Made by a program: the position numbers and the translations under genes. DNA of 64,000 bases from NCBI GenBank assembly GCA_964647565.1, contig CAZYIM010000002.1:32001-96000 (forward strand), written 5' to 3'. How positions within the stretch are numbered: position 1 is the stretch's first letter; every line of letters begins with the position of its first letter. The notes under the pieces were generated by a model. The model was given only the letters and a program-made list of their open reading frames with translations, did no database searches and was not told where the DNA came from. Source of the stretch: an uncultured Methanosarcinales archaeon (GTDB lineage: Archaea > Nanobdellota > Nanobdellia > Woesearchaeales > CAZYIM01). Shown in pieces: positions 3,772 to 55,403 of this stretch.

Positions 3772-6700
3772 ATAAAAAAAGTAGGTTGGGTTTTAGTTGT
3801 TATTGCATTACTGCTTCTTAGTTCTATCTTCATCTATGCAGATGGTGATGAGGGTGAAGGAGAGGAGAATGAGAATCCTACTGACTTAAACAAGGTCATC
3901 GGCACTCCTGATGACAGGTTTGAGGTTGTGCCTACCAATTTCCAGAACATAGATCTTTTTTCTGGGGAGATTAGCGAGTCAATCCCGCTTTTTAGTTTGT
4001 CTGGCAGATCAGGCATGGGATTTTCGCTCGCTGCAAGCTATACCTCGAATTATGATGCTGAGAAAGAGAACAGCGAGCAGCCTGCTGGCTGGCTTGGACT
4101 TGGCTGGAACTTTGGATTTGGGGCTGTTACTGCGAATACAAAGGGAACCGCTAATTTTGAGGATGACACCTTCTATCTTAATAATGAGAAGCTTATCAAG
4201 ATCCCTGGAACAGAGAACCAGTACAAGCTGAAGAATTATCGTTATGTCAAGATCTTTCGGGTGGTAAAAGACAGCAAGATCAACTATTGGGTTGTCTATA
4301 ATGAGGATGGTTCGATGACCATCTTTGGCCAGGTGCCCAATGCTATTTCATATATGATCGGCAAGGGCGACTGGGTTGGCAATGTCTTTGAGGGTGATAC
4401 TGAGCTTACGCCCACTGCTTGGCATCTCTACCGGCAGTCTGATGGCTTTGGTAATAAAGTGACTTATCAGTATCAGAAGACCGATGAATATCTTAAGTCT
4501 GACAGTTGGCAGTCCAAGTATCCATATACAAAAGCCATCTATCCTAAAAAGGTGATAGATACAATTGGGAGGGAGATTGTGTTTAATCTTGCTAACAAGG
4601 AAATTGATGAATATTACGATCCTTATCCATTTCCAGAGCCAGATTCCTATATAGAGTTTTATGAAGATAAATATCTGGACAACATTGTTGTCTATAATCC
4701 AGATAAGACTCAGTCACAATCTGTGACATTTGAATATGAGCTGGTTGGAAGTGGTCAGTTCAAGAAGAGGCTTTTAAAATCAATAACCAAGTCTATATAT
4801 AATGGCGGCCAATGGAATCCGCTTCCAAAGACAGTCTTTAACTATAATGCTGTTTCTGAGTTAAAGCCTGCGGCTCTTAAGAAGATCGAGCATCCTACAG
4901 GCGGTTCGACAGAGTACCAATATAAGGAACAGGAGTTGGCTTACACCAAGCTTGACGGTTCGCTTCAACAAGATCAGACTCAGGTCGGTTATCTTGGCAA
5001 CAACTATATGGTTGTCAAGCATGGTTCTGTTAAAAGCAATAACTATTATTTCCTTGGGAAATATTCTGTTGCCAGAGACATCAGTGTGTATAACTGGGAT
5101 GGCCATAAGTGGGCGGACAAGCAGGATTTTGCAATTAGCACTGACAAGAGGAATCTTCACATCCATTCAGGCCCTGATTATTTCCTTGTAAGGCCTGTCC
5201 AGTCTGACGAGTTTACTATGTTCCAACGGCATGGGGATAAATGGGAAAAGGAGACAACTATTAAGTTTGATCACCAGTTTGAGATAAGTGGAAACCTTGA
5301 TCTTGCTGAACAGACCTATGTTACAGAGAAAGAGATTTCAGTCTATCCGATGCAGGACAATCTTTTCTTGGTCTATGGTAGGAATCATCATAAGGTCAAG
5401 GCATATCATAAGAAGCTGAATGCTCAGAACAGAGTTGAATGGAGTCAGGTTACTCTTCCTAAGCATCAGTTCTCTGGTTATGTCAGAGTCTGGCCAAGCA
5501 ATAATTTCTTTGTGCTCAGACATGGTTCTGAAGGAAAGAAGATTGATGTCTATAACTGGGAGAATGACAAATGGATCAGGAAGAACAATGCAATGAATAT
5601 CGGTGCTGGAGTCATGGATGTTACTGTCGGAGATGATTTCTTCATAATAACAGATGCAGACAAGAAACTGCATATCTATGAGTTCAAGGGTGATTCATGG
5701 GTTGAGGTCCAAAATAAAAATTTGGCTAATAGCCATCTGGCCAAGGTCTCTGCTGGAAATAACTTTTTTGTATTGGGATATTTTAACGGGGATAATGTAA
5801 AGCTCTTTGAGAGGATTAACAATCATCAGTGGCAGATAGAGTCCTCTGCAAAAACCCTTTTTACATCTTCAAGTGGTCATAAGATCTTTGATGTCTTTGC
5901 TAATAATAAATATATAGCTATTGTCACGAGAAAGAAAACAGATCACAGCCACACATATTATTTTACTGTCTTCAATAAGATCAATAACCAGTGGGTGCAG
6001 AAAAAGACCAATGAGAAAATCGGCAAGGTATTTACTCAGGGTCAGTATCAACTCCAGGAGAACAACTGGAGATATAGCGATATATCTGCCCAGGTCTCTT
6101 TTGGTAAGGATCTGTTGACAGTTTCATTATTGGACACCACGTATCAACAGACAGAGAGTTTTGATGTTATAGCTCCTGATAATCCGATTAATCCTAATTA
6201 TCAGGCTTATCAGAGATGTAATGCTAATTACCAGGCCTGCCTGACACCTTGTGAATCATATAACACCAATTCATATGGTGGTCAGTTCCCATTGCAGGAA
6301 TGCCAGCTTGATTGCGGTTCGTGGAACAATAATACCTTTTGTTTCTCTGTCAATGAATTATACAGCAGTGTTTGTGAAAGTTTTAAGAGCTGCCTGACTG
6401 GATTTGCCAGTTCATGGTCTAATAAGTTATTGAGTTGCCAGAGCCAATGCAAGAGTGATTGCAGCACTGCAGAATCCAACTATGTTCCTGCTGCTAACTA
6501 TCAATATGACCAGTGCAGAAGGGGTTGTGCTGATGCATATGAGTATAACCGGGACGGTTTTAGCTGTGCCAAATGTTTTTGGTCTGATTTAGGTGAAATA
6601 TGTAATTTTGGTGAATGCAGTTGGGATAAATTGGGTGGTGGCGTTAGTGCTGCCAGATGTCATAAGGACCACTATGAGTATCCTCTTTCCAAATATTTGT

Positions 6701-7617
6701 TTAATGTTGGTGGAAGCAAGAAAGCCTATTATTTTGATGGCACTGATTGGCAGGTCCTTGATGACAGTGAGGAGGACATGGCCTTGCAGTTTGAAATAGA
6801 CCAACGGCAAGGAACTTCTGTAGGTTTCTTTGATTCCAGGGTCCTTGAATATGACTATGGTTTTGCTACACCTGAACTTTATTATGATACTATTGCATTG
6901 GCTGGTCCTAAAGTGGATAAGAACAACCTGCCTAAGATGACCAAGTTCTACAAGTCTGCTAAGAACAGGGCAAAGGGCAATGCAGTGACTTATCCAATAC
7001 AATCCAAGATTGTGGATGATGGTATTGGCCAGAAGATTACATATAGTTTTGACTTTGCAGAGGGCAAGCATGACTCAACCTTAAATACTGTTCAGTTCCA
7101 TAAGGCCACTGTTAACATGCCTGCAAATTCAGGTAGGATTGTAAATTATTTCTACAATGGATTGAGCAAGGAGGATGGCAGCCAGTTCCCTGACAAGGTT
7201 GGAGGTCTTAATTTTGAAAAACTAAATGGTCTCACATACAAGTCTGAGACTCTGGCAGCAGACAGCAGCAAGGTTGGAGAGTCCTATAACCAATATGAAA
7301 TTATCAACAAGGGCCACTCGTCTTTCCTTGTACGCGGAACAAAATCAGAGACCAGTGTTGATGGAGTTACTTTGTTTACTGAATACGAGTTTAATGAACT
7401 TAATGGCATGCCTAAGAAGACCATTGTCTATGACGCAAAGAATCCATCTAAGAAGCTCATCACTGAATCAAGATTTGCATTTGAGCAATATCCTGAAATG
7501 AAGGTTTACAATATGCTTACACAGCCCTTTGAGACCAAGACATATATTAATACACAGCTTGTCAGGGTCAATAAGGTTGCATATAAAAATTGGAAAATCA
7601 GCGGAGGCGGTAACTAG
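3772..7617 (+). CDS. Secreted SpvB/TcB-like N-terminal Rhs shell protein with beta-propeller-like repeats and a Cys-rich insertion; probable ATA start
   Basis: IDLFSGEISESIPL...GMGFSLAASY...GWLGLGWNF resembles the SpvB/TcB N-terminus, and YD-type strands are present (DGFGNKVTYQY, HPTGGSTEYQY). The frame is open upstream of the GTG at 3928 and encodes a signal peptide, IKKVGWVLVVIALLLLSSIFIYA|DG. Confidence 0.8.
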   Translation: MKKVGWVLVVIALLLLSSIFIYADGDEGEGEENENPTDLNKVIGTPDDRFEVVPTNFQNIDLFSGEISESIPLFSLSGRSGMGFSLAASYTSNYDAEKENSEQPAGWLGLGWNFGFGAVTANTKGTANFEDDTFYLNNEKLIKIPGTENQYKLKNYRYVKIFRVVKDSKINYWVVYNEDGSMTIFGQVPNAISYMIGKGDWVGNVFEGDTELTPTAWHLYRQSDGFGNKVTYQYQKTDEYLKSDSWQSKYPYTKAIYPKKVIDTIGREIVFNLANKEIDEYYDPYPFPEPDSYIEFYEDKYLDNIVVYNPDKTQSQSVTFEYELVGSGQFKKRLLKSITKSIYNGGQWNPLPKTVFNYNAVSELKPAALKKIEHPTGGSTEYQYKEQELAYTKLDGSLQQDQTQVGYLGNNYMVVKHGSVKSNNYYFLGKYSVARDISVYNWDGHKWADKQDFAISTDKRNLHIHSGPDYFLVRPVQSDEFTMFQRHGDKWEKETTIKFDHQFEISGNLDLAEQTYVTEKEISVYPMQDNLFLVYGRNHHKVKAYHKKLNAQNRVEWSQVTLPKHQFSGYVRVWPSNNFFVLRHGSEGKKIDVYNWENDKWIRKNNAMNIGAGVMDVTVGDDFFIITDADKKLHIYEFKGDSWVEVQNKNLANSHLAKVSAGNNFFVLGYFNGDNVKLFERINNHQWQIESSAKTLFTSSSGHKIFDVFANNKYIAIVTRKKTDHSHTYYFTVFNKINNQWVQKKTNEKIGKVFTQGQYQLQENNWRYSDISAQVSFGKDLLTVSLLDTTYQQTESFDVIAPDNPINPNYQAYQRCNANYQACLTPCESYNTNSYGGQFPLQECQLDCGSWNNNTFCFSVNELYSSVCESFKSCLTGFASSWSNKLLSCQSQCKSDCSTAESNYVPAANYQYDQCRRGCADAYEYNRDGFSCAKCFWSDLGEICNFGECSWDKLGGGVSAARCHKDHYEYPLSKYLFNVGGSKKAYYFDGTDWQVLDDSEEDMALQFEIDQRQGTSVGFFDSRVLEYDYGFATPELYYDTIALAGPKVDKNNLPKMTKFYKSAKNRAKGNAVTYPIQSKIVDDGIGQKITYSFDFAEGKHDSTLNTVQFHKATVNMPANSGRIVNYFYNGLSKEDGSQFPDKVGGLNFEKLNGLTYKSETLAADSSKVGESYNQYEIINKGHSSFLVRGTKSETSVDGVTLFTEYEFNELNGMPKKTIVYDAKNPSKKLITESRFAFEQYPEMKVYNMLTQPFETKTYINTQLVRVNKVAYKNWKISGGGN

Positions 7618-26580: not shown

Positions 26581-27726
26581 TTAGTCTTTAAGAAAACTCA
26601 ATAAGTCAAAGATTTTCTTTCTTAAAAAAGTCTTTTTCTTTTCCAGAGAATCCATGTGTGTCTTGAGATCAGACATCTGCTTGTTGATTGTTGCGGATTT
26701 AGAAATGATATTGAATCCCTTTGCACTCTCTATTAATTCTTTGAATTCCTTCTCCAGGTTTAGCCTCAGATCATCTATGTCATCAAGTTTTTTCTCGATA
26801 TTGGTCTTATAGTTCAGGAACTTCTCAAAGTTCTTTATGATGTGTTTGCTTTCCTCTGTGTATTTCTCAACAGATTCCTTTTTTTTGCTGATATTCTTGA
26901 GCATACTTTTCTGGAGTTCCTCAATTTTTTTCTTGTGTTGTGCACTTTTCTCAATCAAGGGGTTTAGGAAGCTCTTTTTGTTGCTAAGATCGGTCTCAAT
27001 CCTTTCCGCCAGATTTTTCAACTCATCCATTCTGACTTTTGAGAGATCTACGTCTTTTTCTTCTTCAGCTATCTTATCCTCAATTAGTTCGAGCTCTTCC
27101 ACAAGTTTATTGATTCTTGATTTGACCTTGTCCTCGTCAGAAAGCAATTTCTTGATCTCGTCAGTTTCCTTGGAGATGTTTTCCCTTTCAATCTTGATGT
27201 CTGAAATCATGGATGCGTACTTCTGCTCATGTTCCTTTATCTATAGTGCTGCTTTTTCAACGAGATCTTCATATTCTTTCTTCTGGTTCTCAATCTCTGT
27301 CCTGAGATTCTTCTGAGCATCCTGATATTCATGGATTTTCTTAAGATCATCTTTCATGTCTGAGATTTCAGGGCCCATTCTTGACTGCAGGTTCTTGAAC
27401 TCATCCTTGATTGTATTAAATGATTCAGTCTCGCTGTCTAAAACCCTGATTGCAGATTCTACTTTCCTGATAAATGCATCTTTTTTGGATGAGTACTCTG
27501 TCTGTTTTACTGCTATCTCTTTCTTGCTCAACCTTCTTTCAACCAGGAAAACCTTTGAAAGAGAGTATTCGATGCTTATCAGACCCTGTTCTTCAAGAAA
27601 GTTAGCCCATTCCTGGACTACCATTGGGCTGACGTTTAGCTCTTTAGCAGCTACATTGAGTTCAAGCTTCTTTTCCTTGGCTACCAGAGCAACAAGCCTG
27701 TCCACACCCGTTTCAATCTTATCCAT
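26581..27726 (-). pseudogene. wHTH-like plus coiled-coil protein interrupted by one in-frame TAG (27241-27243)
   Basis: The two listed ORFs share a frame: ...EKAAL*IKEHEQKYASMISDIK...; N-terminus MDKIETGVDRLV...VQEWANFLEEQGLISIEY. Confidence 0.7.
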
Positions 27727-27789: not shown

Positions 27790-28011
27790 AAAATAAGTAT
27801 TCATCTCTGGCACAGATGGACTTTCTGCGAAAGTCCTACCCTCCCAAGGGTTACGCCCCTTGAGGACGTGTGCGGCTTTCGCCTTTGGCTCAGTCCCACT
27901 CTTTAACTAGCCCTTCGGGAATGCATATTGTCGGCTCGCCCGGCCATGGTTCGCAAGCCTCTTTGCGAACCCGAGAACGAACGAAGTGAAGTGACCATGA
28001 ATGCTTATTTT
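27790..28011. repeat. Structured interspersed repeat, copy 1 (MITE-like element or ncRNA)
   Basis: Inverted ends AAAATAAGTATTCAT/ATGAATGCTTATTTT; several internal hairpins; homologous to 45739..46018. Confidence 0.8.
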
Positions 28012-43535: not shown

Positions 43536-43844
43536 ATGGCTGACGAAAAAATTTTGGAGATTTCAGATGACAAGCTTGACAAATACTTTAAGATAACAGG
43601 CGAGGCCTTGGAGATGGCAAGAGCAGCCCCTAAAAGAAAAGACATGCCTGATGAGGCAGAAGATTTTCTGGACATGGCCAATAGATATTACGAGGATGCA
43701 GGACATTTCAGAGAAAAAGGTGATTATGTCAATGCCTTTGCAGCGCTCAACTATGCGCACGGCTGGCTGGATGCAGGTGCCAGGATAGGCTTGTTTGAGG
43801 TCAAGGACAGCAGGTTGTTCACTGTCGATGATGTCGATGACTAG
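43536..43844 (+). CDS. DUF357 family protein
   Basis: DMANRYYEDAGHFREKGDYVNAFAALNYAHGWLDAGARIG. Confidence 0.9.
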   Translation: MADEKILEISDDKLDKYFKITGEALEMARAAPKRKDMPDEAEDFLDMANRYYEDAGHFREKGDYVNAFAALNYAHGWLDAGARIGLFEVKDSRLFTVDDVDD

Positions 43845-44731
43845 AGATGCATCATAAGTGCTAAGTGAGTCAGGTCTGCGGCTTCTTCTACAATCTTTAG
43901 TGCCTGCATCGAGAATCTTGCGCTGGCTGCGTCAAGGTCTTGGATCTTAAGCTGCTTTTCCCTGAGTTTGCTTTTATACGTTATCAGCTCCCAGACCTTT
44001 TTTTGGTTGTTCTGGAAATAGACTTCAAAGGCAAGTTCCAATCCTTTTTGGGACAATAGAAAGAGTTCTTTTATCTGCTTGTCTCTTTTCACATCATATT
44101 TTACACTGGTCCTCCAGGCCCTGAAGATCTCATCGCCGATCTTTTCAAGTGCAAATGCATAGGCAAAAAGTATCTTGCCGCCTGTTGAGTCTGCATAGGC
44201 ATGCTTGACTATCGACCTTTCAAGAAAAAGCGCGAACTTGTTGATCTCCATGTCCCGCTCCCTTAACTTGTCCATGCTGGCCTTGTTCTCTCCGAATATG
44301 TCCTCGATTGCAGAGTCATAAAACCTGAGTATCATCTGGAAGACCTGCTTAAAGATGGTGTCAAGATTCTCGATTGATGTTCCGCTTATATCCCTTATTG
44401 TATATTTATCCCCTTTCTGCGAGATGACTGCATAGCCGATATTTGTATTGAGGTTCTTGTAGAGCTCGCCGTCAAATTCCAGCTTCATCTCATCAATGCC
44501 TTTTGCATATGCAGCGTTTACATAGGTGTAGGCCATCCGCCTGTGGAATCCCATCATGTTGAGTTTTGTTGAGTCTCCCTTGGCTCTTTTGCCTGACCTT
44601 AGTATCAGGTCTTTTTCATTGATCTCTACATCTATCTCATCGCCCGCCTTTAGGCTGGTCTCCCTTATCCATTGGATGGGCAGGGTTATGGTTATCGCTT
44701 GGTTTGCCTGTTTGATTAGTTTTCTTTTCAT
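43841..44731 (-). CDS. AbrB-domain PhoU-like regulator
   Basis: RKLIKQ...TITLPIQWI...LKAGDEI (AbrB); AAYAKGIDE; LEKIGDE PhoU-like helices. Confidence 0.8.
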   Translation of the reverse strand: MKRKLIKQANQAITITLPIQWIRETSLKAGDEIDVEINEKDLILRSGKRAKGDSTKLNMMGFHRRMAYTYVNAAYAKGIDEMKLEFDGELYKNLNTNIGYAVISQKGDKYTIRDISGTSIENLDTIFKQVFQMILRFYDSAIEDIFGENKASMDKLRERDMEINKFALFLERSIVKHAYADSTGGKILFAYAFALEKIGDEIFRAWRTSVKYDVKRDKQIKELFLLSQKGLELAFEVYFQNNQKKVWELITYKSKLREKQLKIQDLDAASARFSMQALKIVEEAADLTHLALMMHL

Positions 44732-45738: not shown

Positions 45739-46018
45739 AAATAAGCATTCATCCACGGCACAGACGCCCTCCTTTCAGGAGTGCTACCCGCCCAAGGGTT
45801 ACGCCCCTTGAGGACGTGTGCGACATCCTTAAAAATATGCTTTGCGTATTTTTGGGACACCAAAAATCTTAAAGATTTTTCAGTGTTCGCCTTTGGCTCA
45901 GTCCCACTCCTTATCTAGCCCTGCGGGAATGTATATTAACGCCTCGCCTGGCCATGGTTCGCAAGCCTCTTTGCGAACCTGAGAACGAACGAAGTAAAGT
46001 GACCATGAATGCTTATTT
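45739..46018. repeat. Structured interspersed repeat, copy 2, with ~60-bp hairpin insertion
   Basis: Perfect 14-bp inverted ends AAATAAGCATTCAT/ATGAATGCTTATTT; homologous to 27790..28011. Confidence 0.8.
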
Positions 46019-46124: not shown

Positions 46125-46436
46125 ATGAAGCAAAAACAGGTTCACTCTCCCACTCTGAAGACAGTTATGATGGTTGAGGATGTGCTTAAGAACATGGATG
46201 AGAGTGTTATAACTGTCGCTGAACTGAAACGAAGATTGCCCAGGCAGGTGAATCATAATACTCTAAAAGAGATACTGGATTACCTGGACAAGAGCAATAA
46301 AATATATATGAATGTTAAGGGTATAACATGGTTGGTCAATGATAGTCCCAAAATGAGAGAAGCTATACGGAAAGGAGTCAAGTATGATCCAGAAAAATTC
46401 CGTAAAAAGTTAGGCAATTCTTATAAATCCATTTGA
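46125..46436 (+). CDS. Small wHTH-like protein, putative antitoxin
   Basis: SPTLKTVMMVE...LKRRLPRQV...ILDYLDKSNKI; immediately upstream of a RelE-like gene. Confidence 0.65.
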   Translation: MKQKQVHSPTLKTVMMVEDVLKNMDESVITVAELKRRLPRQVNHNTLKEILDYLDKSNKIYMNVKGITWLVNDSPKMREAIRKGVKYDPEKFRKKLGNSYKSI

Positions 46437-46470
46437 TGCTGGCTAAGATATGCGATAGGTCACTTCAATA

Positions 46471-46794
46471 ATGTTTTCTGATGAAGCATCACAAGCATAT
46501 GATGCCTTGGTTAAACATGCAAAAAACTCCAAGAAAGCAAGGATGATCCTTGCAGCCCTTCTTAATAAGCTGGACTTGATATTGGAGAATCCTAGATATG
46601 GGAATCCGTTAGCCAAAAGGTTGATCCCCAAAGAATATAAGCTAAGGTATAAAGCTAAAAATTTATTTCGTGTTGAATTGCCCTGTTTCTGGAGGATGCT
46701 CTATTCCTTAACCAATGATGAGATCGAGATAATAGCTCTTGTGGTTGATGTTGTCGATCATAAGGATTACAACAAGAAATTCAGCTATGACTAA
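46471..46794 (+). CDS. RelE/ParE-like toxin
   Basis: LENPRYG...NLFRVEL..FWRMLYSL...VVDHKDY. Confidence 0.65.
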   Translation: MFSDEASQAYDALVKHAKNSKKARMILAALLNKLDLILENPRYGNPLAKRLIPKEYKLRYKAKNLFRVELPCFWRMLYSLTNDEIEIIALVVDVVDHKDYNKKFSYD

Positions 46795-49390: not shown

Positions 49391-51412
49391 ATGAGTGTAA
49401 ATCAGGAAGTAAAGGATGTAAAATCTATCAATATAAAGAATTTTATAACTGCTCTTGAACATATGCATCCTGACATCTCTTCAGTTGTGGATCCTGTTTA
49501 TGCGCTTTACACAAAAGAGTATATTGACGATCCAAATACCTGGACTGGAACTCAGCCAGTATTAGACCTGTTTACCAGGTATAAAGAGTTTGTGAATGTC
49601 AAGCATCCTAGTGTGATATTTGATGTTGGCATTAAGACCTCTAAATTAAGGGCTATTGGTAAGCTGGAAAACTTAGTTCGATTTGTGGGCCGACCGAGAG
49701 TGGCTTTCTCTCAGATCCCCAATTATAACAAGCACTTTAACAACATCTTTGATATGGAAGTACATAACCTGACTGGCAGTTCTGCAACTTTAATTGTAAA
49801 CTATATTCCCAGAAAAGAAAATATCTGGACTTATGAACAATGCTGGTGGAACAGGGGCATCATTGCCTCGATTCCGCAACTTTGGAATCTTCCCAATGCA
49901 GAGTATAAGGAAGTATTATGTTTCTATACCCCTGAGAAGATTGCACAGAGCACAGGCCTCAATATCCATACTCAAGGGACTGACCTATTTATTGATGATA
50001 AAAAGATCGGAGAAAAGGTACTGCTTAAGAAGGATATGGTCACTACCAAACACCTTCCTTTTCGATTGACTAAAAAATCAGACAGGCCAAAGTTATTTGG
50101 TAGTGAATATGAGATGTTTGATGCATCAGTCCACACCAATGAGCCTTCTGGCTATTTGATTACTGAGGATGTGGAACTTGAAGACAAATTATTGCTTGAA
50201 AAGGGTGTGATCATTGGAGCACCTTATTGCCGATATGAATTCACCTGGAAAAACAAGAACTTCTTCAAGAACCTTTATGATTTGACCATAGGAAAATTTA
50301 AAGAATTAAAAAAGACCAGTTTTGCACTTGAAGAGCAATTGAATTATTCTCAGCAGCAATTCTTCCAGATTGAGAACTTGCTTAACAAGGAGAAGGAATT
50401 GACAGCCGAACTGACTGAGCATAAAGAACATTTGGAGGAGATGGTTGAAAAACGCACCGATCAGTATAAGTCTGAGAAAGAGCGTGCCGAAAATGCACTC
50501 GATGAGTTGAAGGCGGCTCAAGATCAGATCATCAAAGCAGAGGTTTCTGCGGCTGAGAAGGCAGAACAGTTAAGGACTTCAGAGATCCTATCAGGAGGTA
50601 TTGCACATGAGTTGGGTAATGCCCTTACCGGCGCAAATCAATTGTTGGATCATGTCTTGAACTATAAAGGAGATAAATCCATGGTCCAGGTCATCTATGA
50701 CCAGATATCTCAATTCGCTAGTGTAATCAAGAAACTGACTAAGGACTATAATGTTCCAAATGAGGTTATATCTTCAGAGATCATTCCTGGATTGATGGAG
50801 ATAGTAAATATTATTGATCCTTCCCAAAACAATAAGAAGAACAAGAAACCTTTGGAGAAAGTTCTTGAGACAGTCAAAATGGGTGTTGAAAGGTCTTTAA
50901 GGATAAAAGAGCAGTTCAAGGATTATTCATTATTGCAAAGACAGGTCAAAGGCACTACGCCTGTTAATATGCGGGACTTGTTGAATTCTGTAATTGACAG
51001 TTGTTCACCACAATTAGAACAATATGACATAACATATCTTGTTCATGCCATTGAGGAAAATTATACTATGATCGGTGATCGTGACCAACTTTATTCAGTG
51101 CTCTCAAACCCGGTCTTGAATTCAATCTATGCTGTAAGAGACACAGAAACAAGAAAGATTGACCTAACTCTAGAATCTGAAAAATTTAATGGTGACACAT
51201 TCTTGAAATATATTGTAGAAGATACTGGCTGTGGTATCCCTCAAGATAAGCAAAAAAGGATTTTCGATCCATTGTTTTCAACCAAGGGTGTTGAGGGTAC
51301 TGGTCTGGGCCTGAGCATTGTCAAGAGGATTGTTGATCTTTACGATGGTGTGATAGAGTTCGATTCAAAAGAAGATGAAGGCAGCAAGTTCACTTTCTAC
51401 CTAAAACAATAA
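49391..51412 (+). CDS. Soluble sensor histidine kinase with V4R/HNOB-like N-terminal domain
   Basis: H-box GIAHELGNAL; N-box SNPVLNS; G-boxes DTGCGIP, IFDPLFSTK, GTGLGL. N-terminal CWWNRG...EVLC...GAPYCRYEFTW. No TM segment. Confidence 0.88.
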   Translation: MSVNQEVKDVKSINIKNFITALEHMHPDISSVVDPVYALYTKEYIDDPNTWTGTQPVLDLFTRYKEFVNVKHPSVIFDVGIKTSKLRAIGKLENLVRFVGRPRVAFSQIPNYNKHFNNIFDMEVHNLTGSSATLIVNYIPRKENIWTYEQCWWNRGIIASIPQLWNLPNAEYKEVLCFYTPEKIAQSTGLNIHTQGTDLFIDDKKIGEKVLLKKDMVTTKHLPFRLTKKSDRPKLFGSEYEMFDASVHTNEPSGYLITEDVELEDKLLLEKGVIIGAPYCRYEFTWKNKNFFKNLYDLTIGKFKELKKTSFALEEQLNYSQQQFFQIENLLNKEKELTAELTEHKEHLEEMVEKRTDQYKSEKERAENALDELKAAQDQIIKAEVSAAEKAEQLRTSEILSGGIAHELGNALTGANQLLDHVLNYKGDKSMVQVIYDQISQFASVIKKLTKDYNVPNEVISSEIIPGLMEIVNIIDPSQNNKKNKKPLEKVLETVKMGVERSLRIKEQFKDYSLLQRQVKGTTPVNMRDLLNSVIDSCSPQLEQYDITYLVHAIEENYTMIGDRDQLYSVLSNPVLNSIYAVRDTETRKIDLTLESEKFNGDTFLKYIVEDTGCGIPQDKQKRIFDPLFSTKGVEGTGLGLSIVKRIVDLYDGVIEFDSKEDEGSKFTFYLKQ

Positions 51413-52804
51413 CTATTTTTGGTTGTAGACTGGATCTGAGAATTCCCTGACAATATAGATGCCTTGGTGCGGTATTAGAAGGTCGAAGTCGTGTGTCGGT
51501 ATGTTGCTTTTCACGATATAGGTTTTCAATAATGGCCGGACCTCTTCTATCTTCTTATTTGATTTTGAGATTACAGATGTGACCAGGTTCTTCTGCATCT
51601 GGTTGTCTTTTAGATCCCTGTCGATCAAGGATTCAAGTTCATCTAAGTCTGAGTATGATCTTACACCAACTATTGGCCCGGGATATTCCATTGTTGTGTC
51701 ATATTTGTTCAAAGGAATTATGGAGGTATGCAGCAGCTCTCTTTCACCTTCGACACTTAGATTAAGATATCCGCTCTTGCCTCTCTTGACCAGCTCGCCT
51801 TTGATGAAATCAATGTTTCCAGAATCCACTAATCCGATTTTGGACTCATCAAAAGGATCGCCTGATCGATATTTTAATGCTTCCTTATTCAATCTGTCCA
51901 AAAGCTTATCATATTTCTCTTCATGCGCATATATTATATCAGTTGATTCACATTCATTTCCTGCGTTGACAGTTATTGACTCCATCAACAATTTCATATT
52001 CATCTCATCAACATCTGCATCATCAAGAAGAACACTAATGCTCAAACCAGTACCATAACCAATTACCCTTCTTGGAGTACAGTTTTCCCTTATCTCTGCC
52101 TCTACTTTTTTCACAGTATTGTCATCTCCAAAGAAGATGTAGTTCCAACCATCAACGCATAATTTTTCTAGAAAACCACTATCTGCAGGAGTATTTATGA
52201 CTGAAACTGCATTCTTTAATGGATATAATTCTTTTTGATTCAGCTTGTCTATAGTCTTGTTGAGAGCTAGGACAAATTCATTAGAGTTATATGCGCCTGC
52301 CCCTTTGCTTGAGGGTCTTAGTATTGTGGCGTTCCTTGACAATAGGTTTTGAGCAACAACATAAAGCATGACTTGTTCTGAGTTGCTGGGCAGAATTGTT
52401 ACAATTGGTGCAGTGTTTCGATAAGTGATATTACCTTTTTCTAAAGCTCTGCCCAAAAATCCCTCCGCGCAAAAACACCAATTTTTTACAAAATCCATGC
52501 CCTCCCTAACAAAATTAATTGGGCTTCCATTTAGTTTTACAATAGTTTCATATTTAGTTTTATTATGGAAATAATTATGCATGGTGTCTTCCAATAATCT
52601 ACGTACATTTGCCATAGGTATCTTTCCTAACTCTCTTTGGACTTTGTTAGCATTCTTAATTGCAGACATCAGTTCATAGTCATTGACATCATGTACTTCG
52701 AGCATTGGATTGCCATTGTAATCATTGAGAATTCTCCTTAACGCTTTAGGAGACTTCCTGAATTCTCCGTTGACATAGCTTGGGATTTGTTTGAGTCGTA
52801 TCAT
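51413..52804 (-). CDS. Aldehyde-dehydrogenase-fold acyl reductase (LuxC-like)
   Basis: SYVNGEF, ILPSN, ILRPSS, FFG, NAGNECES (catalytic Cys position), EYPGP. Confidence 0.7.
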   Translation of the reverse strand: MIRLKQIPSYVNGEFRKSPKALRRILNDYNGNPMLEVHDVNDYELMSAIKNANKVQRELGKIPMANVRRLLEDTMHNYFHNKTKYETIVKLNGSPINFVREGMDFVKNWCFCAEGFLGRALEKGNITYRNTAPIVTILPSNSEQVMLYVVAQNLLSRNATILRPSSKGAGAYNSNEFVLALNKTIDKLNQKELYPLKNAVSVINTPADSGFLEKLCVDGWNYIFFGDDNTVKKVEAEIRENCTPRRVIGYGTGLSISVLLDDADVDEMNMKLLMESITVNAGNECESTDIIYAHEEKYDKLLDRLNKEALKYRSGDPFDESKIGLVDSGNIDFIKGELVKRGKSGYLNLSVEGERELLHTSIIPLNKYDTTMEYPGPIVGVRSYSDLDELESLIDRDLKDNQMQKNLVTSVISKSNKKIEEVRPLLKTYIVKSNIPTHDFDLLIPHQGIYIVREFSDPVYNQK

Positions 52805-52805
52805 C

Positions 52806-54032
52806 TTAGTTTATCTGGCAGCCGTGCAGGGCTTTGCCTTTGTGAAATCCTAATCGCTTGATATCATATAATATAGGTGTATTTCTGCCGCATTTACATT
52901 CAAGGCCATTCTTGCTAAGCTTTGCACCATCTCCAGTCATGTAGTTGATGAAGTACATTCCTGAGGGCACCACATTGTTGCCTTTTTTGTCTGTTCCTGC
53001 AATCTTTGAAGTTAGAGTATAACCTGATTCATTGGGTTTGGCTAATCCTGGTTTTTCCAGGCTCTTAATCAGCACGAGCGATTGGCCCAGGGTCAGATGG
53101 AAATTCCTCATCTTCGCAGAACATGTTGCTGCTGTAGGACAAACTTCTGTACTTCCGAAATGGCCTTTGATATAAGGGACCTGCAGATCATCTTTAAGAT
53201 AATCCAGCAATCCTTCTGAGATTGGCATGCTTGACCAGTAAGCGAACTTAAAATCTGGATTATGTTTGTGGCTTAAATCCCATTCGGGATTTCTGTTTTT
53301 GGCATCAAGCTCTAAGATGTCAACAAGGAAGGAACCTTTTTGACGATATTCTCCTTCGGGGGGTGCCAATATTCCATTTACTTTGAATGTTTGAGACATA
53401 TCATATAGATCTACAATATCTGCTGTTGCAGAGGGTCTTCCAAAAATCTGGCCTCCCAGTCTATGAAACATGTTGCCGTAAATGTGATTAGTTATATGGT
53501 CTCCGTGATATGCTCCAAGAATTCTCATTCCCACCATCGGAGTCTTCCTTGCTTCAATGCCTTCGAATTTGAACTTGCCTTTCTTGAATTCGATATCAGG
53601 TGTTTTGGGATCCATATAGAAGTCAAACTCTATATGCCTGTTGGCAGTTATTGACATTCCCCGCCAGTCTTCCATGGAGTGGAATATCTTGATTGGCTTT
53701 CCAGTACTGCCACCTGTGCCAAAAGACCAGAATTCGCCATGGTTTGGATCTATCTCTCTTTTTACCTCTGGCACAAATGCAAACTGGCTGTTCTTTGACA
53801 AGTGTTCCTTAGTCAGATATGGGATCATGTCCGCGAACTCGTCCATTGAGGATATCTTCTGGATATCTGCTTGGGATAGGTGCTTGTAATGCTCCTTGAA
53901 GAAAGGCACATTTTCCTTAGCAAAGAGCACTGTTGGGATTACTTGTTCATTTAGAATTACTTTATCTCTATCTTCTGGTTTGGCAGTATCCCACCAAAAA
54001 TCACTGAACTTGGGCGAGTTTAGTTTTTCCAT
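52806..54032 (-). CDS. Acyl-adenylating enzyme, LuxE/PaaK-like
   Basis: FAKENVPFF, PYLTKEHL, GTGGSTGKP, FGSTEV, NYMTGD, CKCGR; ends ...ALHGCQIN. Confidence 0.75.
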   Translation of the reverse strand: MEKLNSPKFSDFWWDTAKPEDRDKVILNEQVIPTVLFAKENVPFFKEHYKHLSQADIQKISSMDEFADMIPYLTKEHLSKNSQFAFVPEVKREIDPNHGEFWSFGTGGSTGKPIKIFHSMEDWRGMSITANRHIEFDFYMDPKTPDIEFKKGKFKFEGIEARKTPMVGMRILGAYHGDHITNHIYGNMFHRLGGQIFGRPSATADIVDLYDMSQTFKVNGILAPPEGEYRQKGSFLVDILELDAKNRNPEWDLSHKHNPDFKFAYWSSMPISEGLLDYLKDDLQVPYIKGHFGSTEVCPTAATCSAKMRNFHLTLGQSLVLIKSLEKPGLAKPNESGYTLTSKIAGTDKKGNNVVPSGMYFINYMTGDGAKLSKNGLECKCGRNTPILYDIKRLGFHKGKALHGCQIN

Positions 54033-54033
54033 C

Positions 54034-55311
54034 TTATTTCTTGGTGATATTTATCCTTTGAGATAGTTTATAATCCAGATAATGCGGATGCGGATCCTTT
54101 GATACTATCTCTCTGTATTCAGGCTGTCGTTTTAAGAATGAAAAAACTTTATCAGGATGAGTCACTGAATATTCAATAGTATCCCCGAATTGATCCAAGA
54201 CTTCAGATAATTCCTCTTGTGTCAATGAAGCTTGGATAGTATTGACCAGGTCTTGTCTAACATGCTTGTTGGTTGCCAATAGTCTTTGGCTTAAGTAGTT
54301 GTCATCAATATCTTCTCTTCTGTAATCAGATATATACATGGAGCCGCCAGGTTTCAGACAGTCAAGACCAGATTTAAAGAATGCTTTCAATGTTGCATCT
54401 TTAAAATGATGCATAGAGTTTTGGCAGACCACGAGATCTGCATCTTTTAAGGTTTCCAGTGATTGCCCAAGATTTAAAAGATCGCATATTTCAAAGCTTA
54501 AACTTTTTTCTGAGTGTTTATTCTTTGCAAAATCTATCATATAATTTGATCCGTCAACACCTATGACACTAGAGGATTGATATTTTGCTAAATTCAATGA
54601 AAGGTCTCCTGGGCCTGAACAGAAATCCAATATTTTTTTACCTTTCAATCCAAAAAGATTATTTATTTCCATTGCAAAAAGGATATAGTCTGAGTTTTCT
54701 GGATAGCTGCAGCCATAGGCATATCGTACAGCCTCTCCCAGGTCTGCGATGGAGTGATCTTCTAACACTCGTTTAATGTCATCATCTATATCGAATTGCA
54801 TGGAAAAATCAAGTAGATTGTTTTTTTCATTCGGATCAGACACATATTCAAAGAACCGTTTTCGTCTTAGTTCAATGAACTTGTCATATGCACGCTTGAC
54901 TTCTTTTTTTAAGATTGCATCATCGCCTTTTTCTACAAACGAGAACAGTCCGTGTTCAGATGTAAGGATCTCCTTGGTCTTATAGTCTGCAGGATGTGCA
55001 GTGTATAGGATCTTTATAGAATTAGGGCTTTTTTTCTGGAGCTCTTTGGTCAGCTGGATTCCATCCATACCAGGCATCCTGACATCGATGATGATTACAC
55101 CTTTGTTATCATCAAGCTTTTTTAAGGCCTCTTCTCCGCTGATGGCATATTCAATCTTGTATTCTGGTAATATGACGCCTATACTGTCTCTTATGATCTG
55201 GTCATCGTCAACCACTAATATCTCTGGCTCTTCATTGATATCATGAATTTCCTTTTTTTCAACTTCTTCTGCATCGGACAGCAATTCAGCTAAATCTTTA
55301 TTCATTTTCAA
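54034..55311 (-). CDS. Response-regulator receiver fused to a class I SAM methyltransferase
   Basis: REC: ILVVDDD, IIDVRMPGMDG, YTAH, VEK. MTase: ILDFCSGPG, GVDGS, SMHHF, LKPGG...SDYRR. Confidence 0.85.
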   Translation of the reverse strand: MKMNKDLAELLSDAEEVEKKEIHDINEEPEILVVDDDQIIRDSIGVILPEYKIEYAISGEEALKKLDDNKGVIIIDVRMPGMDGIQLTKELQKKSPNSIKILYTAHPADYKTKEILTSEHGLFSFVEKGDDAILKKEVKRAYDKFIELRRKRFFEYVSDPNEKNNLLDFSMQFDIDDDIKRVLEDHSIADLGEAVRYAYGCSYPENSDYILFAMEINNLFGLKGKKILDFCSGPGDLSLNLAKYQSSSVIGVDGSNYMIDFAKNKHSEKSLSFEICDLLNLGQSLETLKDADLVVCQNSMHHFKDATLKAFFKSGLDCLKPGGSMYISDYRREDIDDNYLSQRLLATNKHVRQDLVNTIQASLTQEELSEVLDQFGDTIEYSVTHPDKVFSFLKRQPEYREIVSKDPHPHYLDYKLSQRINITKK

Positions 55312-55403
55312 CCACCTTTGCCATTAAATATTGTACTTAGATAAACCGGATTAGTTTATAAACATTTCTATAGATAGTCACTTGAGAGTGGTTTTTAATA
55401 GAA

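Follow-up and report, generated by a model that had tools for sequence, protein, structure and literature searches.

Mosaic three-way-junction repeats in Woesearchaeota: a probable REP/BIME-like family folding as single-stranded DNA

Background

Among described systems, those closest to the repeats reported here are the bacterial REP/BIME/REPIN sequences with TnpA-REP (RAYT), which, according to the sections of the sources cited, are extragenic and multi-copy, form a hairpin that has mismatches in its stem and a tetranucleotide resembling GTAG at its 5′ foot, occur as inverted doublets and mosaics, insert into other palindromes and have no detected target duplication (PMC3333891, PMC3733652, PMC3116915, PMC6006769). 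A REP is a hairpin of 20-40 bases, for which one of these sections gives the criterion of GT[AG]G 0-2 nt 5′ of the hairpin foot (PMC6006769), and CGTC REP families are presented in another as having no known transposase (PMC3733652). Strand-specific DNA hairpins are also a property of the subterminal hairpins of IS200/IS605 and their non-autonomous derivatives, as far as the cited section describes them (PMC6006769). Two further points of reference, taken from parts of the respective papers, are the presence of integron attC sites in Nanoarchaeota (PMC9668308) and the mini-hairpins GCGNAGC and GCGNNAGC, which are far more stable as DNA than as RNA and are found at the origins of the ssDNA phages G4, St-1 and alpha3 and in ssiA (PMC13037366).

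The Woesearchaeota element has the traits first listed in common with REP/BIME/REPIN, its GTAG-like foot being an unclear fit to the GT[AG]G criterion. Set against REPs as characterised in the sections cited, it differs in its unit, a three-way junction of 85-280 bases with a long bulged stem, in pairing the last G of GTAG, in often having ATAG instead, in a CGTC behind the same hairpin and in its archaeal host. No repeat-flanked RAYT gene was found here, and for this reason we do not file the repeat as a member of REP/BIME/REPIN.

Results and discussion

Two mosaic copies in the window

The window, that is the whole 64,000-base stretch of DNA analysed here (G000:C2:32001-96000), belongs to a host genome (G000) of 2.68 Mb, 38 % GC and 87 % completeness and contains two large copies of the element (Table 1). 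Copy 1 has the same sense as its two neighbours, minus-strand genes of a pilus/T2SS-like cluster. Copy 2 is antisense to the genes on either side, both of them on the plus strand: a PHP gene and a small gene, the latter followed by a ParE-type gene. The genes flanking the copies are archaeal in type, and since nearly all named records with the element are Woesearchaeota or Nanoarchaeota MAGs, the host is called Woesearchaeota-type here. The small gene and the ParE-type gene directly after copy 2 (46125-46794) are likely a toxin-antitoxin pair, and a MazE/AbrB-like domain protein is encoded upstream of copy 2 (43841-44731). The window also holds large, secreted-looking ORFs with RHS/YD repeats (3928-11520) and a cluster encoding a histidine kinase, a LuxC-like reductase, a receiver-methyltransferase, two FIST proteins and a KaiC-like ATPase (49391-59364).

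The original prediction had described a two-copy element without an ORF, based on a shared closing stem, the CAAGGG and GGTTCGCAA hairpins, hairpins of different sequence at one equivalent position and a GGC-GAAA-GCC tetraloop. The closing stem, both shared hairpins and the GAAA loop lie exactly where they had been placed, with a 60-base insertion in copy 2. The differing hairpins are both real but represent two alleles, each of which recurs in other copies. The tetraloop of copy 1 is found neither in copy 2 nor in the homologous C31 module and is therefore not a conserved RNA signature. As to coding potential, copy 1 is touched by a single ORF, which extends the gene at 27241 from a GTG start.

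Table 1 Parts of the two window copies, and hairpin inserts elsewhere in G000 (window positions unless a contig is named)
Feature	Position	Strand	Remarks
Copy 1, whole mosaic element	27790..28011	-	94 % identity over 223 bases to the large copy G000:C11:14903-15125
Copy 1, closing stem	27790-27804/27997-28011		one T.G pair
Copy 1, 3′ arm of AT-rich outer stem (27790-27803) and 4-base bulge (27804-27807)	27790..27807	-	
Copy 1, conserved GC-rich inner stem, 3′ half	27808..27817	-	single bulged T
Copy 1, hairpin P2 and GTAG foot	27818..27839	-	GNA triloop on minus strand; unpaired TA is the invariant junction
Copy 1, differing hairpin	27818-27836		position equivalent to 45766-45784 in copy 2
Copy 1, nested module M1, tip of P3	27845..27899		homologs between tRNA-end duplications and inside tRNA genes
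Copy 1, CAAGGG hairpin	27845-27862		
Copy 1, GGC-GAAA-GCC loop	27874-27883	-	
Copy 1, companion-type mini-repeat (TAG foot and short hairpin)	27903..27923	+	sense opposite to core; unscored pattern resemblance; 13 look-alikes in G301/G302 tiles
Copy 1, inner stem 5′ half and P3 base	27935..27946	-	
Copy 1, module M2 (27949-27994) between 5-base repeats (27944-27948 and 27995-27999)	27944..27999		
Copy 1, GGTTCGCAA hairpin	27948-27971		
Copy 1, outer stem 5′ arm	27998..28011	-	
Copy 2, whole mosaic element	45739..46018	-	
Copy 2, closing stem	45739-45752/46005-46018		perfect
Copy 2, 3′ inner stem, P2 second allele (45766-45784) and GTAG foot	45756..45787	-	
Copy 2, module M1	45793..45907		
Copy 2, CAAGGG hairpin	45793-45810		
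Copy 2, two-hairpin module M4	45823..45882		60 bases, nested within M1
Copy 2, companion-type mini-repeat	45911..45931	+	
Copy 2, 5′ inner stem (45943-45954), M2 (45957-46002) between 5-base repeats and 5′ outer arm (46006-46018)	45943..46018	-	
Copy 2, GGTTCGCAA hairpin	45956-45979		
Hairpin inserts in G000	C1:106914, C2:23195, C8:9924, C19:49902, C21:33982, C22:32672, C48:14440, C63:5533, C64:4365		

A covarying three-way junction

On the minus strand of the window, the core of the element reads as a long bulged stem that opens into a three-way junction. The stem starts with an AT-rich outer part of some 11-15 pairs, followed by a bulge of 4 bases, a short GC helix, one bulged T and four further pairs. 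In the junction, hairpins P3 and P2 are separated by an unpaired TA, and P2 is followed by a single unpaired G. A net excess of 4 bases on the 3′ outer arm is usual in the family.

That secondary structure is under selection, as had been proposed from the two window copies, is strongly supported. In a structure-blind MAFFT alignment of 34 copies from G000 and other MAGs, pairing holds in 92 % of cells, and at 23 of the 30 pairs both sides have changed in compensatory fashion; none of 500 shuffles, a control that ignores the relatedness of the copies, equalled the real value, and slid registers gave 40-51 %. The structure test was also made with 12 of the host genome's own copies. Variation at individual positions was tallied in 106 pattern matches from 103 loci, which come mostly from two genomes and so are not independent. 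Although the search pattern imposed no pairing, one inner pair is A-T in 74 and G-C in 32 of these, and the closing pair of P3 is C-G in 81, T-A in 22 and other in 3. The hairpin foot reads GTAG in 82/106, the last G pairing within the stem, and ATAG in the other 24/106, and the outer arms pair while their sequence differs freely among subfamilies.

Whole-copy folding energy picks no strand, since shuffles are beaten on both strands, with z scores of -4.3/-3.5 and -5.9/-6.4 for the two copies folded as RNA and of -4.3/-4.5 for copy 1 folded as DNA.

Family size and host range

Rather than the two copies first described, G000 contains about 39, found by BLAST, motif and descriptor searches together with a covariance model (29 covariance-model matches and 10 more from descriptor searches and inspection). 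Most family copies in G000 are 85-130 bases long, the two window copies and one at C11 being the largest, and 13-15-base terminal inverted repeats are common to one subfamily. The Woesearchaeota genomes G301 and G302 have at least 116 and at least 80 covariance-model matches respectively, which in G301 is one copy per ~13 kb. Across element-positive genomes copy number ranges from 1 to >100, and a split-P3 subfamily occurs at low copy in many genomes.

Relatives were found in 22 of 150 genomes of the order by covariance model, the other 128 having no match, in a tally of 28 candidates scored per genome with G131 counted in. A second covariance model matched none of the 131 genomes outside the order within a class sample of 150 (131 being counted from family tallies). 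An exact degenerate pattern run against the genome collection gave 108 loci, of which 100 belong to records titled Woesearchaeota or Nanoarchaeota and 4 to records titled Methanosarcinales; the remaining 4 (L049, L067, L116, L130) are chance matches in bacteria. These four and the duplicate L073 were removed before counts were made; L082 was additionally left out of the flanking-repeat test below. We do not accept the Methanosarcinales-titled loci (L098, L099, L140, L147) as spread beyond the order. Over its 653 bases, L147 shares 76 % identity with a locus of Woesearchaeota and has the appearance of mis-binned DNA from that group, and L098 and L099 are of low GC with protein matches in G000.

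Relatives of copy 1 were reached only by pattern and covariance searches, BLAST against 40 genomes of the same order having returned none. In viral contigs the full pattern had no match and a shorter pattern had 11, none of which folds as the element, those whose ORFs were examined lying in coding DNA. The Infernal search of Rfam suggested in the original prediction matched no family at gathering and E-value thresholds, giving only the flanking tRNAs and sub-threshold chance matches. Comparison by eye with consensus features led us to reject tRNA, hammerhead, K-turn, BHB, RNase P, SRP and group II intron. In the openly available literature we found no description of such repeats in Woesearchaeota, though subscription papers and the supplementary motif tables of large ncRNA surveys could contain this motif. 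The element is a real, order-restricted structured repeat, apparently not described before.

Nesting and possible exchange of modules

The window copies are mosaics with smaller modules nested in them. Five copies have M2 in the outer stem, flanked by 5-base repeats, and a related module occupies the opposite arm of the C28 copy; a module related to M4, with the same linker, is present in the family member G000:C7:42423-42586. The P2 alleles of copies 1 and 2 each recur in other family copies, and this suggests that modules were exchanged rather than altered step by step between copies 1 and 2.

A free M2-like module (G000:C43:11290-11352) ends at the start codon of what we take from its translation to be a secE-like gene, behind a presumed ftsZ. 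In G301, tandem arm remnants lie beside intact copies, upstream at L075, L083, L085, L086, L129 and L134 and downstream at L048, L053 and L129, a pattern suggestive of copies recombining with older ones, or inserting into them, close to the inner stem.

Restriction to spacers and gain and loss between species

None of 94 copies lies inside a long ORF, though such ORFs cover 82 % of the DNA. To follow individual sites we compared 737 kb of G301 with 786 kb of G302, roughly half of either genome, at a median protein identity of 70 %. Of 156 syntenic spacers 132 are empty and 15 are filled in one species; both species carry the element in matching orientation in 7 and in opposed orientation in 2; one of the four filled in G302 only is doubtful, its genes being merely 26-31 % identical. 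Genes abut at several of the empty orthologous sites, from which it follows that the gained block, of ~130-290 bases, takes in linkers and the companion repeat described below. At the 7 sites shared in the same orientation the fold is intact across 70 % protein identity and the hairpins have mostly changed, which fits continuing selection or conversion. Such old intact sites suggest host selection and not selfish spread alone.

Flanking direct repeats show no excess in 104 copies (mean 3.78 compared with 3.60 +/- 0.11 in shuffled sequence), in agreement with the earlier report of no clear target-site duplication; a 2-base TA duplication is still compatible with these data, the ends being AT-rich. 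The flanks hold a companion mini-repeat, consisting of a TAG foot and a short hairpin, with 37 and 48 matches against 4 and 2 in reversed controls. In 40 cases it is found no more than 150 bases from an element, 33 of them with the two on opposite strands, and the side on which it lies is species-specific. A dif-like motif in the element flanks was dropped as a candidate because the flanks hold these companion repeats. Back-to-back element doublets are seen and, like the companion on the opposite strand, recall the inverted doublets of REP/BIME; most cores have no second core nearby. Contigs from four of eight DNA runs contained no joint, at a depth mostly <7 and in fragmentary cover, and are uninformative as to excision or inversion within the population. 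Enrichment among neighbouring genes was limited to orthologs and one XerA-like pair.

Probable folding as single-stranded DNA

The loops of the element assign its fold to one strand. On the sense strand 51 of 106 P3 loops are GNA triloops, 27 are GNYA and 2 are GNRA; GNA also forms 49/106 P2 loops, the commonest single P2 loop being gCUUGc (13/106), a known RNA tetraloop. The opposite strand offers 1 GNA loop, and cUUCGg is possible in only 8/106 P3. The hairpins of the element match the DNA mini-hairpins GCGNAGC and GCGNNAGC (PMC13037366). G.T oppositions in P2 and P3 likewise number 75 on the sense strand as against 2 of A.C.

Orientation relative to genes is random and placement is indifferent to transcription, the four classes of gene arrangement around elements numbering 31/26/21/19 (covering 97 of 105 sites). 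A TATA-like pattern that peaks before 81 of 326 genes has 7 and 0 matches at the matching distances per 94 elements, and thus gives no promoter signal at the element start. Strand polarity along contigs was not seen either, neighbouring copies being on the same strand 40 times and on opposite strands 35 times.

The DNA-type loops, random orientation, missing TATA signal and filled or empty orthologous sites taken together fit a ssDNA element better than a structured RNA gene. The original prediction had proposed a structured RNA or a ssDNA-mobilised element rather than a simple MITE; its case against an ordinary target-duplicating MITE and its ssDNA alternative agree with these data, and its RNA alternative does so less well. 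Our preferred reading, which we consider probable while leaving real room for doubt, is that the window copies are mosaic members of a non-autonomous REP/BIME-like repeat that folds as ssDNA, is recognised by its structure and exchanges modules. The fold would form on transiently single-stranded DNA, for example the lagging-strand template. Its TAG-footed hairpin and its bulges would be read by a nicking-and-joining enzyme, in the way that TnpA-REP reads REPs, and this enzyme would also swap hairpin modules among copies. Copying into new spacers is likely carried out by such a structure-reading enzyme encoded elsewhere, and as a first guess the mover of the core may be of HUH/Y1 type, acting in trans or since lost.

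Several points count against this reading. GTAG varies to ATAG in about a fifth of copies, and the 106 copies tallied are not independent. Perfect inverted repeats can be homogenised by template switching without selection, and the folds at the 7 old orthologous sites have remained intact. The gCUUGc loops, one pair in the outer stem of copy 1 that favours the plus strand and the occurrence of M1 in tRNA genes tell against folding as DNA.

M1 at tRNA ends and inside tRNA genes

M1 homologs lie in G000 between tRNA-end direct repeats of 33 (C26), 21 (C31), 18 (C36) and 22 bases (C8), and elsewhere between ~45-base tRNA-end repeats (L355) and between 15-base repeats at the start of a protein gene (L448). 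L355 was the sole convincing case among 108 loci from a metagenome scan for M1, the others being judged chance. M1 turns the same end toward the intact gene in 6/6 duplication sites, lying upstream on the gene strand or downstream on the other strand, and this constant facing on either strand points to insertion at the DNA level. In G061 and G102 the motif stands between tRNA halves and was taken by eye as an intron, the G102 gene being pieced together from two contig ends; M1 homologs inside tRNA genes are thus at least transcribed.

ARAGORN found only 18 tRNA genes in G000, 17 with introns, and the tRNA-Val at C31:10730-10860 appears to hold two non-canonical introns. More hairpin inserts of 40-100 bases are present in G000 between direct repeats of 14-19 bases that are mostly tRNA-end-like (Table 1), and the one on C1 has 13 bases in common with module M2.

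Integrase elements leave attL/attR scars in the form of tRNA-end duplications, and M1 likewise lies between tRNA-end direct repeats, of 18-45 bases. The M1 inserts however are only 70-110 bases long and gene-less, their duplicated sequence depends on the target and includes a protein-gene start (L448), and either tRNA end, 5′ or 3′, can be the site, with the orientation mirrored between the two. The Y1 reaction is not known to leave duplications of 15-45 bases, so that a second or different mechanism would be needed for M1. A broader idea, which we offer tentatively and consider doubtful, is that gene-less ssDNA mini-elements share the TAG-footed hairpin, nest in one another and are moved by an enzyme other than Y1, RT or GIY-YIG that also inserts M1 at tRNA ends and into tRNA genes, in which case tRNA introns would be born at the DNA level.

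The same tRNA genes bear on an RNA explanation, by which the element would act as a processing signal, stabiliser, terminator or ribozyme in read-through transcripts, or as a small RNA, and would perhaps have spread as RNA in the manner of tRNA introns. The M1 homologs inside tRNA genes of G061 and G102 and the intron-rich tRNAs of G000 speak for it, as do the strong covariation with its invariant junction and G.T wobble bias, the folds kept at the 7 old sites and the 13 gCUUGc loops. We regard it as unlikely nonetheless, given that GNA triloops and GNYA dominate and GNRA is rare, that co-directional gene pairs show no sense bias (31 vs 26), and that there is no promoter peak, no RT in the five element-rich genomes and no Rfam match. 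Two particular RNA structures were rejected. An archaeal BHB has a 4-bp helix with 3-nt bulges on opposite strands, whereas both bulges of the core are on one arm, and the ends of M2 fail to form a BHB; the core letters of the hammerhead are absent.

Search for a mobilising enzyme

A search for linked HUH or RT genes had been suggested, and searches for Y1_Tnp among the HUH families, for reverse transcriptase and for GIY-YIG found no partner. Y1_Tnp is absent from G000 (87 % complete), G020, G147 and G302, present once each in G080 and G301, and carried by 56/150 genomes of the order. It does not co-occur with the element: 10 of the 22 genomes with the element and 46 of the 128 without it carry Y1_Tnp (Fisher p 0.48, in a table which assumes that the element and Y1 tallies cover identical genomes, with G131 counted in). 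None of 49 Y1 loci has an element; one element lies 1.1 kb from the IS200-like gene of G301. Apart from this lack of linkage and co-occurrence, the element differs from IS200/IS605, as portrayed in the section cited (PMC6006769), in having no left-end/right-end architecture. The short P2 allele, all 14 occurrences of which are within elements, has a 12-base match to the end hairpin of the order's IS200-like elements; this is a weak hint and possibly convergence. The IS200-like elements L494, L498, L499 and L502 have clear left and right end hairpins, one hairpin being the short P2 allele. Reverse transcriptase is missing from all five element-rich genomes and GIY-YIG is present in one of the five. 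Y1, RT and GIY-YIG are not supported as partner genes, and this lack of a partner gene counts against our preferred reading as well.

Tyrosine recombinases were considered in the same way. The folded strand of an attC site combines an outer box and an unpaired spacer with an extrahelical T and a tip that varies, and its R box contains an invariant AAC/GTT crossover triplet. The element resembles these in having an outer box and a variable tip, in its bulged T and 4-base bulge on the 3′ arm and in keeping structure over sequence, and could be an attC-like or folded-attP-like ssDNA site for XerA/IntI-like recombinases in which the bulges mark orientation. XerA-like genes occur in 105/151 genomes; an element lies directly upstream of one in L087 and L168, another lies among attC-looking spacers 2 kb from a XerA-like gene, and M1 between tRNA-end duplications resembles integrase scars. 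The triplet is however absent in the CATTCA, CAGCC and GAT arm types, the junction is invariant where attC tips vary, and copies are scattered in both orientations among housekeeping genes with no cassette arrays. None of 35 other recombinase loci has an element, and two adjacencies per ~300 copies is, by rough estimate, near chance. Taken as a whole this makes the recombinase-site explanation quite improbable. XerA/IntI-like genes of ~270 aa stand beside attC-looking spacers and small genes at L215 (G147:C8:500-8500) and L168/L217 (G015:C25); they fall under the NCBIfam integron-integrase cut-off where tested, and the loci are possible integron-like arrays.

It is very improbable that the element is a domesticated host ssDNA signal, a primase or SSB-excluding site like ssi and the phage G4 origins, spread for replication restart. 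The mini-hairpins at the G4, St-1 and alpha3 origins and in ssiA are, by the part of the source cited, the same as those found here (PMC13037366), and the density in G301 and the intactness of old copies would suit such a role, but strand polarity is missing, 128/150 genomes of the order have no match and copy number varies from 1 to >100. No more credible is an ordinary MITE, dsDNA moved by a DDE transposase reading terminal inverted repeats, which would account for the inverted repeats of the G000 subfamily and for presence and absence between species but not for the lack of flanking-repeat excess, arm sequence that varies freely with pairing kept, wobble and loop biases specific to one strand, or the finding of no ORF-bearing version among descriptor matches up to ~300 bases and only ordinary genes between elements on both sides.

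Conclusions

REP-like repeat systems have been described from bacteria, and the hosts here are archaea, for which our literature search found no account in Woesearchaeota. Genomes of 1.5 Mb that are otherwise thought streamlined carry >100 copies, and a precise three-way junction is kept while arms and hairpins turn over. The copy-richest genomes mostly lack the expected Y1 enzyme, which makes the identity of the mover a testable question. The window copies link the family to modules at tRNA ends and inside tRNA genes and so bear on the origin of archaeal tRNA introns. For ncRNA screens the family is also a caution, in that the strong covariation seen here probably reflects folding of DNA.
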